Shown here piece after piece: positions 12,666 to 14,410 of a DNA stretch of 25,963 bases. Made by a program: the position numbers and the translations under genes. Below the pieces are notes generated by a model. That model was not told the origin of the DNA. It did not search any database and was given only the letters and a program-made list of their open reading frames with translations. The DNA is from a virus (taxonomy: Duplodnaviria > Heunggongvirae > Uroviricota > Caudoviricetes), in the IMG/VR virus record IMGVR_UViG_2563366982_000005, one strand, 5' to 3'. Each line of letters starts with the position of its first letter. The first letter of the stretch is position 1.

Positions 12666-12852
12666 ATGGCAACTTTGACAAAAAAAGAACAGGCATGGTT
12701 GAACGAATTACAGGACGTTCTTGATCGCTGTCCATCACCGAAAAAAATTGGTTTTTACACCATTGGCGATAAAAGCATTTACCTGTATGACCTGCGCCGC
12801 ATGGATGAAATCATGGAGGCTCTTGATAATCGTTCGTCAATGGATTGGTGTG
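12666..12852 (+). pseudogene. Phage small gene truncated/fused by IS911 insertion
   Basis: ORF MATLTKKEQAWLNELQDVLDRCPSPKK... begins at 12666 and runs straight into the IS911 inverted repeat at 12853; downstream reading continues into IS sequence (track ORF 12576-13007). Confidence 0.4.
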
Positions 12853-12882
12853 TGAAGTGGTCAACAAAAACTGGCCACCGAG

Positions 12883-13701
12883 TTAGAGTTTTTTCCAGTA
12901 TCGATTTTCCGATTCGTTTGGTGGTAACCCACCATTATATTCGTGCGGTCTTAGTGCGCTGTAATATCCAACGATATAGTCCGTTATTGCGTGAGCTGCA
13001 TCGCTGAAGCTTACATAGCCCGTCGCCGGCACCCATTCGTTCTTCAGACTCCTGAAGAAGCGCTCCATTGGGCTGTTATCCCAGCAGTTTCCACGCCGAC
13101 TCATACTCTGCCTGATCCGGTATCTCCACAGTAACTGCCGGAACTGCCTGCTCGTATAATGACTGCCTTGATCGCTGTGGAACATCACCCCGACGGGCTT
13201 ACCACGGGTTTCCCATGCCATTTCCAGTGCTTTCATGGTAAGCCTGCTGTCCGGCGAGAACGACATGGCCCAGCCCACTGGTTTTCTTGCGAACAGGTCG
13301 AGAACAACGGCGAGGTACGCCCAGCGCTTACCCGTCCAGATATAGGTCACATCACCGCACCACACCTGATTTGGCTCGGTCACGGCGAACTGCCGTTCAA
13401 GGTAGTTAGGGATAGCAACATGTTCATGACCACCACGTTTATACCGGTAAGTCGGCTGCTGACAGCTGACCAGCCCCAGCTCTTTCATGAGTCTGCCAGC
13501 AAGCCAGCGCCCCATCTGGTAGCCTCTCTGGGTTGCCATTGTGGCGATGCTTCTTGCTCCGGCAGAGCCGTGGCTGATGCCATGCAGTTCAAGTACCTGG
13601 CTGCGTAATACAGCCCGTCTGCCGTCTGGCTTTTCAGGACGGTTTTTCCAGTATTTGTAGCTGCTGCGATGGACCCCGAACACATGGCAGAGAGTGGCCA
13701 C
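12883..13701 (-). CDS. IS911 transposase OrfB (catalytic DDE part; made as OrfAB fusion by -1 frameshift)
   Basis: 272-aa track ORF with IS3-family integrase-core character (…[10 protein letters not shown]…[18 protein letters not shown]…); true orfB frame extends upstream to the frameshift window. Confidence 0.8.
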
Positions 13702-13727
13702 AGGATAACGCGCCCTGAGTTTCCCGA

Positions 13728-14030
13728 TTATCGAGAACTGTTCAGGGAGTCTGACATCAAGAGCGCGGTAGCCTTTTTTAATATTTCATTTTCCATTTCA
13801 ATACGTTGTAGCTTTTTCCTGAGCTCACGGATTTCAATTTGTTCCGGGGTAATAGGGGAGGCTTTTGGTGTTTTTCCCTGCCGCTCATCACGTAATTGTT
13901 TCACCCATCGCGTCATTGTGGAAAGGCCGACATCCATAGCGCTGGCTGCATCTGCCACGGTGTAATTCTGGTCAACGACCAGTTGAGCGGATTCGCGTTT
14001 AAACTCTGCGCTGAAATTTCTTTTTTTCAT
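13728..14030 (-). CDS. IS911 transposase OrfA (HTH, leucine zipper)
   Basis: 100-aa frame from MKKRNF within the 112-aa track ORF; matches recalled IS911 OrfA. Confidence 0.8.
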
Positions 14031-14254
14031 TATGGCACCTGTGTTGTTCTGAGGTGAGCATATCACCTCTGTTCAGGTGGCCAAATTCAGTAAACCACTT
14101 CAGTCTCAGGCATGAACACCAAAAGGCAGATAGAGAAAAGCCCCAGTTAACATTACGCGTCCGGCAAGACGCTTAACATTAATCTGAGGCCATATCTATG
14201 CTCTACACACGTAGGTTAGCCTCTTACGTGCCGAAAGGCAAGGAGAAGCAGGCT

Positions 14255-14410
14255 ATGAAGCAGCAAAAGGCGATGCTAATCGCCCTGATCGTCATCTGTT
14301 TAACCGTCATTGTGACGGCACTGGTAACGAGGAAAGACCTCTGCGAGGTACGAATCCGAACCGGCCAGACGGAGGTCGCTGTCTTCACAGCTTACGAACC
14401 TGAGGAGTAA
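14255..14410 (+). CDS. hokD: Hok/Gef-family type I toxin (HokD/RelF-like)
   Basis: 51-aa frame MKQQKAMLIALIVICLTVIVTALVTRKDLCEVRIRTGQTEVAVFTAYEPEE with AAGGAG SD; matches HokD (RelF) as I recall it; single TM helix plus conserved Cys. Confidence 0.8.
   Translation: MKQQKAMLIALIVICLTVIVTALVTRKDLCEVRIRTGQTEVAVFTAYEPEE

Follow-up and report, generated by a model that had tools for sequence, protein, structure and literature searches.

The 25,963-nt virus record IMGVR_UViG_2563366982_000005 (Caudoviricetes; the whole of this stretch is called the window below) carries a complete insertion sequence (IS) of the IS911 group between a truncated small phage gene and an intact hokD-type toxin gene. 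We consider it likely that the toxin gene belongs to a stand-alone prophage hok/mok/sok module whose 5' end was removed by an IS-mediated deletion of 735 bp, and that this intact toxin gene is probably silent. Our confidence is very high for the structure, an IS-made deletion, and moderate to high for the functional silence. An earlier note on this DNA had described the locus as an IS911 copy that interrupts a small phage gene upstream of an orphan hokD, with hok expression perhaps rewired by the IS.

A 735-bp deletion beside the insertion sequence

The features that define the two junctions are as follows.

12666-12852, plus strand: remaining 5' part (62 codons) of a phage gene for 87 aa (phrog_1714, function unknown; intact form WP_000224216.1)
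12853-14102, minus strand: complete IS of the IS3 family, IS911 group, 1250 bp, with both ends and the transposase present
12853-12879: right inverted repeat (IRR), at the transposase 3' end, with the left junction of the deletion at 12852/12853
14076-14102: left inverted repeat (IRL), the transposase-promoter end, adjoining the hok leader; the right junction is 14102/14103

Taken singly, each flank of the IS has 100% identity to prophages of numerous complete E. coli genomes, among them NCTC86, ABU 83972, and 042, and in those genomes 735 bp separate the two flanks. With the NCTC86 prophage locus (L004) as the intact reference for both deletion and leader coordinates, window positions 8229-12853 align to L004 1-4625 at 99.87% identity and positions 14100-18580 to L004 5357-9837 at 99.96% identity, which leaves L004 4625-5359 (735 bp) missing between the flanks; comparison of the whole window with the missing stretch found no translocated copy of it. 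Missing are the final 77 nt (25 codons) of the gene for 87 aa, two complete genes coding for 55 aa and 114 aa, and the 139 bp that precede the retained part of the hok leader. On the left, the IS does cut the open reading frame (ORF) beginning at 12666, as the earlier note had it: the frame keeps 62 native codons and then reads into the IS, forming a chimeric ORF (12666-13007, 113 aa) of 62 native residues, a junction valine, and 50 IS-encoded residues.

The triplets beside the IS (left GTG, right GTC) do not constitute a target-site duplication, and the earlier note had likewise seen no clean 3-bp duplication. In the other copies of the IS group that we inspected, a perfect 3-bp duplication was present in 6/6 (GCT, CTA, ATC, AGG, CAC, and AAC). 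The window copy has none because 735 bp were deleted beside it, and the absence concerns the history of this copy, not its family membership. We read the event from the sequence as an IS insertion plus an adjacent deletion of 735 bp rather than a simple insertion. Two routes could lead to this structure. In the first, insertion is followed by deletion of the adjoining DNA, as when an intramolecular transposition deletes it in one step; in the second, two direct-repeat copies of the IS, one in the 87-aa gene and the other in the hok leader, recombine.

The retained part of the hok/mok/sok module

To the right of the IS, from nucleotide +18 of the intact hok transcript onward, the locus is identical to that of NCTC86, and it retains the following elements.

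14103-14254, plus strand: 5'-truncated hok mRNA leader, corresponding to the intact transcript from nucleotide +18 onward, without promoter and without tac
14138-14144, plus strand: ucb, or anti-Shine-Dalgarno (anti-SD), element
14185-14191, plus strand: mok SD region
14198-14410, plus strand: mok-type frame of 70 aa, an in-frame N-terminal extension of hok, with the mok ATG at 14198
14240-14245, plus strand: hok SD, AAGGAG
14255-14410, plus strand: hok toxin gene, HokD-type, 51 aa, with a protein identical to the K-12-type HokD WP_000813254.1 (Pfam HOK_GEF, 1.2e-23)
14415-14442, plus strand: 3' hairpin after hok
14456-14472, plus strand: fbi (fold-back inhibitory) element with the core CUCAA(C)GCACC, whose 5' partner in the intact mRNA, GGUGCUUGAG, is deleted in the window
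14479-14500, plus strand: intrinsic terminator of the hok transcript
14132-14206, minus strand: candidate Sok antisense RNA of about 75 nt, a long hairpin followed by GGGGCUUUUCUCU, with approximate ends taken from the R1-type alignment
14213-14241, minus strand: candidate sok promoter, with -35 TTGCCT (reverse complement of 14236-14241), a 17-nt spacer, and -10 TAACCT (reverse complement of 14213-14218)

The toxin gene itself agrees with its earlier description as a HokD/RelF-type gene that has its own SD and a folded 3' region (here the hairpin at 14415-14442) and that lies about 150 bp from the IS; the distance from the IS end to the hok ATG is 152 bp. The earlier note had also raised inactivating changes in hok as a point that would tell against it; the hok ORF is intact and its protein identical to HokD.

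Both the candidate Sok RNA and its promoter are situated entirely on the right-hand side of the IS junction. The hairpin with its U-rich tail (z = -4.5) folds like R1-type Sok, and the hexamers of the candidate promoter align with those of the R1-type sok promoter, TTGCGC and TATCCT, so that homology and folding together suggest a sok gene at this place.

Loss of the presumed promoter and of tac

We aligned the R1-type hok locus, NCTC86, the window, strain 90-1, and the K-12-type Qin locus. The R1-type 5' end, GGCGCUUGAGG, stands opposite GGUGCUUGAGG in NCTC86, which places mRNA nucleotide +1 at L004 5343, and the R1-type -10 TATGAT aligns with TAGAAT in NCTC86 (L004 5330-5335). Positions 4-6 read GCT and positions 70-72 read AGC, a numbering that agrees with PMC9841398. 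Neither the presumed hok -10 (L004 5330-5335) nor nucleotides +1 to +17 (L004 5343-5359) are found in the window; by this alignment, the deletion took the presumed hok promoter and the first 17 nucleotides of the transcript, comprising tac and the 5' arm of the first hairpin.

The Rfam model RF01794 (gathering score 59) gives a consistent picture. The intact NCTC86 leader (L004 5342-5517) scores 117.1 bits and the R1-type plasmid locus 87.2 bits, whereas the match in the window (14033-14260) reaches 57.5 bits, under the gathering score, and does so with its first stem forced over 54 nt of the IS end with non-canonical pairs. Although named 'sok antitoxin', RF01794 models the sense-strand hok leader up to the hok AUG and not the antisense Sok strand, and its consensus structure includes the tac/ucb stem.

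Predicted consequence for hok expression

In the minimum free energy fold of the intact NCTC86 mRNA, the 5' GGUGCUUGAG pairs with the 3' CUCAA(C)GCACC, which is the tac/fbi end pairing (z = -5.7), and in this fold the mok SD is also sequestered by ucb; the hairpin between ucb and the mok SD is predicted in the folds of both the intact and the truncated RNAs. In the R1 model, 3' processing of the mRNA allows tac to pair with ucb, which frees the mok SD (PMC9841398). Substitutions at G4, C5, or T6 of the R1 hok tac abolish toxicity, the open tac/ucb conformation being blocked (PMC9841398), and the bases homologous to these three are deleted in the window. The locus would thus have a hok gene without a promoter of its own, and any transcript entering from upstream would lack tac; because the mok SD becomes free in the R1 model only when tac pairs with ucb, it would here be expected to stay paired with ucb and hok to stay translationally closed, while Sok could still be made.

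The IS does not appear to supply a substitute promoter. Its end facing hok is IRL and the transposase is transcribed away from hok; a consensus scan found no plus-strand promoter-like site inside the IS facing hok, and the -35 in IRR (TTGACC), judged by eye, points away from hok and lacks a usable -10 partner in the left flank. Readthrough from the IS into hok, which the earlier note had proposed looking for, is therefore unlikely. Its broader suggestion, that the IS may rewire the expression and control of hok, stands insofar as control is altered, but silencing is likelier than rewired expression because the hok promoter and the 5' tac have been lost. The most likely state under the R1 model is a hok gene that has no promoter and is closed to translation, while sok may still be expressed; the hokD copy in the window should be left out of counts of functional toxin-antitoxin loci.

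Points against this reading and alternatives to it

Several points weigh against a module truncated and silenced in this way. The promoter, the mRNA 5' end, and sok are assigned via R1-type homology and the Rfam model, and the structure predictions are thermodynamic only. A strict sigma-70 consensus scan calls neither the presumed hok promoter of the intact locus nor the candidate sok promoter; for the sok-like antisense promoter whose search the earlier note had recommended, the candidate is the R1-aligned TTGCCT-17-TAACCT. A promoter-like TTAACA-18-TATGCT at 14173-14202 is kept in the leader and could in principle give a short hok transcript, and on prophage induction transcription of the early right operon could continue across the IS into hok. 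As to how the deletion arose, both routes give the same product, and the sequence fits one step and two steps alike. Finally, probes for the left and right junctions returned 0 records at a coverage of at least 80% among 5,426 complete E. coli genomes, so that no precursor with either junction was found there.

Some of these points favor a hok gene that is still conditionally expressed, through early-right readthrough or from the weak site in the leader, with a toxin that acts, for example, during induction. hok is co-oriented with the surrounding early genes, its ORF and SD are intact, and the TTAACA-18-TATGCT site is still there. We nevertheless regard such expression as unlikely: the transcripts would begin without tac and without the native 5' end, ucb and the mok SD remain paired in the predicted fold, point mutations in the R1 tac suffice by themselves to abolish toxicity (PMC9841398), and the candidate Sok is retained. 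The leader site is also present in intact loci, and it is a single match, fewer than expected by chance.

If sok is expressed and hok is not, the locus might act as a sok-only 'anti-addiction' locus, in which Sok neutralizes the hok mRNAs of closely related hokD-type loci on other resident prophages or superinfecting lambdoid phages. This would change prophage stability or exclusion if true, and we think it quite improbable.

The structure could also be an artefact of assembly, if two IS copies around the 735-bp segment, or an IS located elsewhere, had been collapsed or mis-joined by a short-read assembler. IS copies are classic collapse points, and, beyond the E. coli genomes in which neither junction occurs, the exact junction patterns have 0 matches in the GTDB species representatives and 0 in IMG/VR, while among phage records none covers the arrangement. 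However, both flanks keep the order and orientation that they have in relatives, where a mere 735 bp separate them, as would be expected of a real IS-mediated deletion, and the sequence is clean across both junctions; we judge an artefact to be highly improbable. Three apparent full-length or junction matches proved to be chance joins of distant IS matches with hok or flank matches, and the 'Mobile element protein' annotated beside hok in phage vB_EcoS-640R1 spans just 44 codons and does not represent an IS.

Relation to the relBE-hokD operon

The earlier note was right that relB and relE do not lie upstream of hok, and tblastn over the whole window found no RelB or RelE homologue anywhere in it (best E = 1.1). 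Its view of the gene as an orphan of relBEF does not hold up. In the intact relatives, hokD is preceded by three small phage genes and the full hok leader, not by relBE. A 212-nt probe spanning promoter and leader has matches, at a coverage of at least 80%, at 9,920 places in 4,205 of the 5,426 complete E. coli genomes, about as many as the hokD ORF with its 3' region (9,889 places).

The K-12 Qin locus, whose alignment with the window the earlier note had proposed as a way to define what was lost, encodes an identical Hok protein with 2 silent nucleotide differences in the ORF and has the same 3' fbi/terminator region. Homology between the K-12-type relE-hokD and the window locus begins only at AGGAGAAGCAGGCTATG. 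In the Qin-type hokD, homology is confined to the hok SD and what follows it, relE lies 71 bp upstream, and the mok start, ucb, and sok are lacking, whereas the window keeps these three and has no relBE. relBE was never part of the window locus; the stand-alone hok/mok/sok module with its full leader is the common form in E. coli and the ancestral one here, the K-12 relBE-hokD arrangement is the derived one, and 'orphan' is a misnomer.

The alternative of a simple IS insertion in a small gene, with hokD as an orphan of a relBE-hokD operon now driven or rewired by the IS, can draw on the completeness of the IS, its distance of 152 bp from hok, and the absence of relB and relE from the window, but we give it almost no credence, since 735 bp of prophage DNA are missing between the flanks, the comparison with NCTC86, ABU 83972, and 042 contradicts it, the full leader is so widespread, no leader sequence is common to the K-12-type relE-hokD junction and the window locus, and the transposase reads away from hok with no outward promoter found.

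Two further observations concern the breakpoint of the K-12-type arrangement. Homology between relE-hokD (locus L003, 2990-3017) and stand-alone hokD begins exactly at AGGAGAAGC, and in strain 90-1 (locus L005, 2630-2640 and 3885-3905) an IS911 copy with the duplication AGG adjoins the same nucleotide as the start of AGGAGAAGC. This is one coincidence and possibly a hint that an IS made the breakpoint at which relBE and hokD became fused.

Identity of the insertion sequence

The coding features of the IS are the following.

13728-14030, minus strand: orfA, 100 aa, HTH_Tnp_1
13773-13779, minus strand: A AAA AAG slippery heptamer (A6G) for a programmed -1 frameshift
12883-13779, minus strand: orfB frame, with the rve DDE catalytic domain

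The terminal inverted repeats are imperfect (27 nt, 78% complementary) with TG...CA tips (TGAAGTGG...CCACTTCA). A -1 shift at the heptamer yields an OrfAB of 382 aa with matches to HTH_Tnp_1 at 1.4e-14 and to rve at 1.6e-31. Over its full 1250 bp, the IS matches a RefSeq-labelled ISEc52 copy of E. coli MSB1_4E at 100% identity and two further copies at 99.9%; its identity to annotated IS911 is 94.9% (phage Sf6) and 94.1% (strain 90-1). On these identities, 'IS911' is correct as a group name and ISEc52 is the nearest named element; the earlier description of a complete 1250-bp IS911 with both inverted repeats was accurate in extent, ends, and group but not in the name.

The window copy shares with IS911 and ISEc52 the length of 1250 bp, the imperfect TG...CA repeats, the orfA/orfB organization with an A6G -1 frameshift, and the helix-turn-helix and DDE (rve) domains. 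It differs from IS911 in lacking a 3-bp duplication and in a run of six T residues (T6) at 12889-12894, which is T5 in IS911 (Sf6 and 90-1) and in one other ISEc52 copy. The T6 run alters and shortens the C-terminal end of OrfAB, which finishes in ...RYWKKL (382 aa) rather than ...RYWKNSNAVASFS (389 aa). RefSeq flags identical or near-identical copies (100% and 99.9%) as 'frameshifted' pseudogenes, yet they occupy different loci with perfect 3-bp duplications; the variant has evidently been mobile.

Prophage setting

The prophage is lambdoid and Stx-phage-like, and the locus lies in its nin region. Other features of the window are these.

4537-4588, minus strand: DicF (Rfam, gathering level)
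14576-15226: RmrT match (PADLOC, 4.6e-25), directly downstream of hok
15204-16310: RmrA match (PADLOC, 6.2e-105; Pfam HTH_3 and Peptidase_M78/IrrE)
20900-21149, plus strand: three tRNAs (Rfam, gathering level)
21981-22186 and 22464-22673, plus strand: two STnc100 copies (Rfam, gathering level)
22676-22728, minus strand: AsxR ('anti-stx2' small RNA; Rfam, exactly at threshold)

RmrT and RmrA, matched by the two genes that immediately follow hok, form a Rosmer-type anti-phage defence pair in a nin-region moron slot and also occur in the NCTC86 prophage. The DicF, tRNA, STnc100, and AsxR matches make up a late-region layout typical of Stx-phage-like lambdoid prophages.

Comparison with known systems

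The locus resembles hok/mok/sok (parB) of R1 and R1-type IncF plasmids in its layout, its leader with ucb and mok SD, its candidate sok promoter and hairpin, its fbi element, and its terminator, and the intact relative further shares with the R1 type the 5' GG(C/U)GCUUGAGG tac sequence and the pairing of the 5' and 3' ends. Unlike R1, the window locus lacks the promoter and tac (+1 to +17), has mok in frame with hok, encodes a toxin of the HokD branch, and lies in a prophage rather than on a plasmid. Enrichment of hok genes in prophages is known (bioRxiv 10.1101/2025.08.07.668861).

Two other hokD-type loci, both in prophage remnants, have been hit independently by the same IS group. In E. coli 90-1, IS911 forms a simple insertion in the hok SD with the duplication AGG, and in E. 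coli PCP06022, ISEc52 forms a simple insertion inside the hok ORF with the duplication CAC; neither combines an insertion with a deletion at leader position +17/+18. A further ISEc52 copy, in the K-12-like Qin prophage of strain PO06021 (L003 3374-4622), has the duplication ATC and is located between hokD and rem, some 200 bp downstream of the toxin gene and outside the hok transcript; RefSeq also places ISEc52 beside rem in other strains. A preference of the IS911 group for hok leaders is conceivable but quite improbable, and three independent hits among thousands of IS places are no evidence of enrichment.

The elements that inactivate hok loci in K-12 are IS150 and IS186. A passage in PMC7232551, citing Pedersen & Gerdes 1999, attributes the non-functional state of the K-12 hok loci and of hokX in E. 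coli B to insertion elements, point mutations, or rearrangement, and reviews have noted sequence insertions in chromosomal hok loci (PMC4147584). As in the IS-inactivated chromosomal loci described in that passage of PMC7232551, the IS in the window lies beside an intact hok frame and inactivation would act via the regulatory region, not the ORF; the difference is that the IS here belongs to the ISEc52/IS911 group and comes with an adjacent deletion of 735 bp. Both components are identical to known sequences, and only their particular junction appears new to the collections searched. The comparison corrects the view of prophage hokD genes as relBE orphans, with little import beyond annotation. 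The event is another case of the known decay pattern of chromosomal hok loci, one more in which an IS would inactivate hok through its regulatory region.

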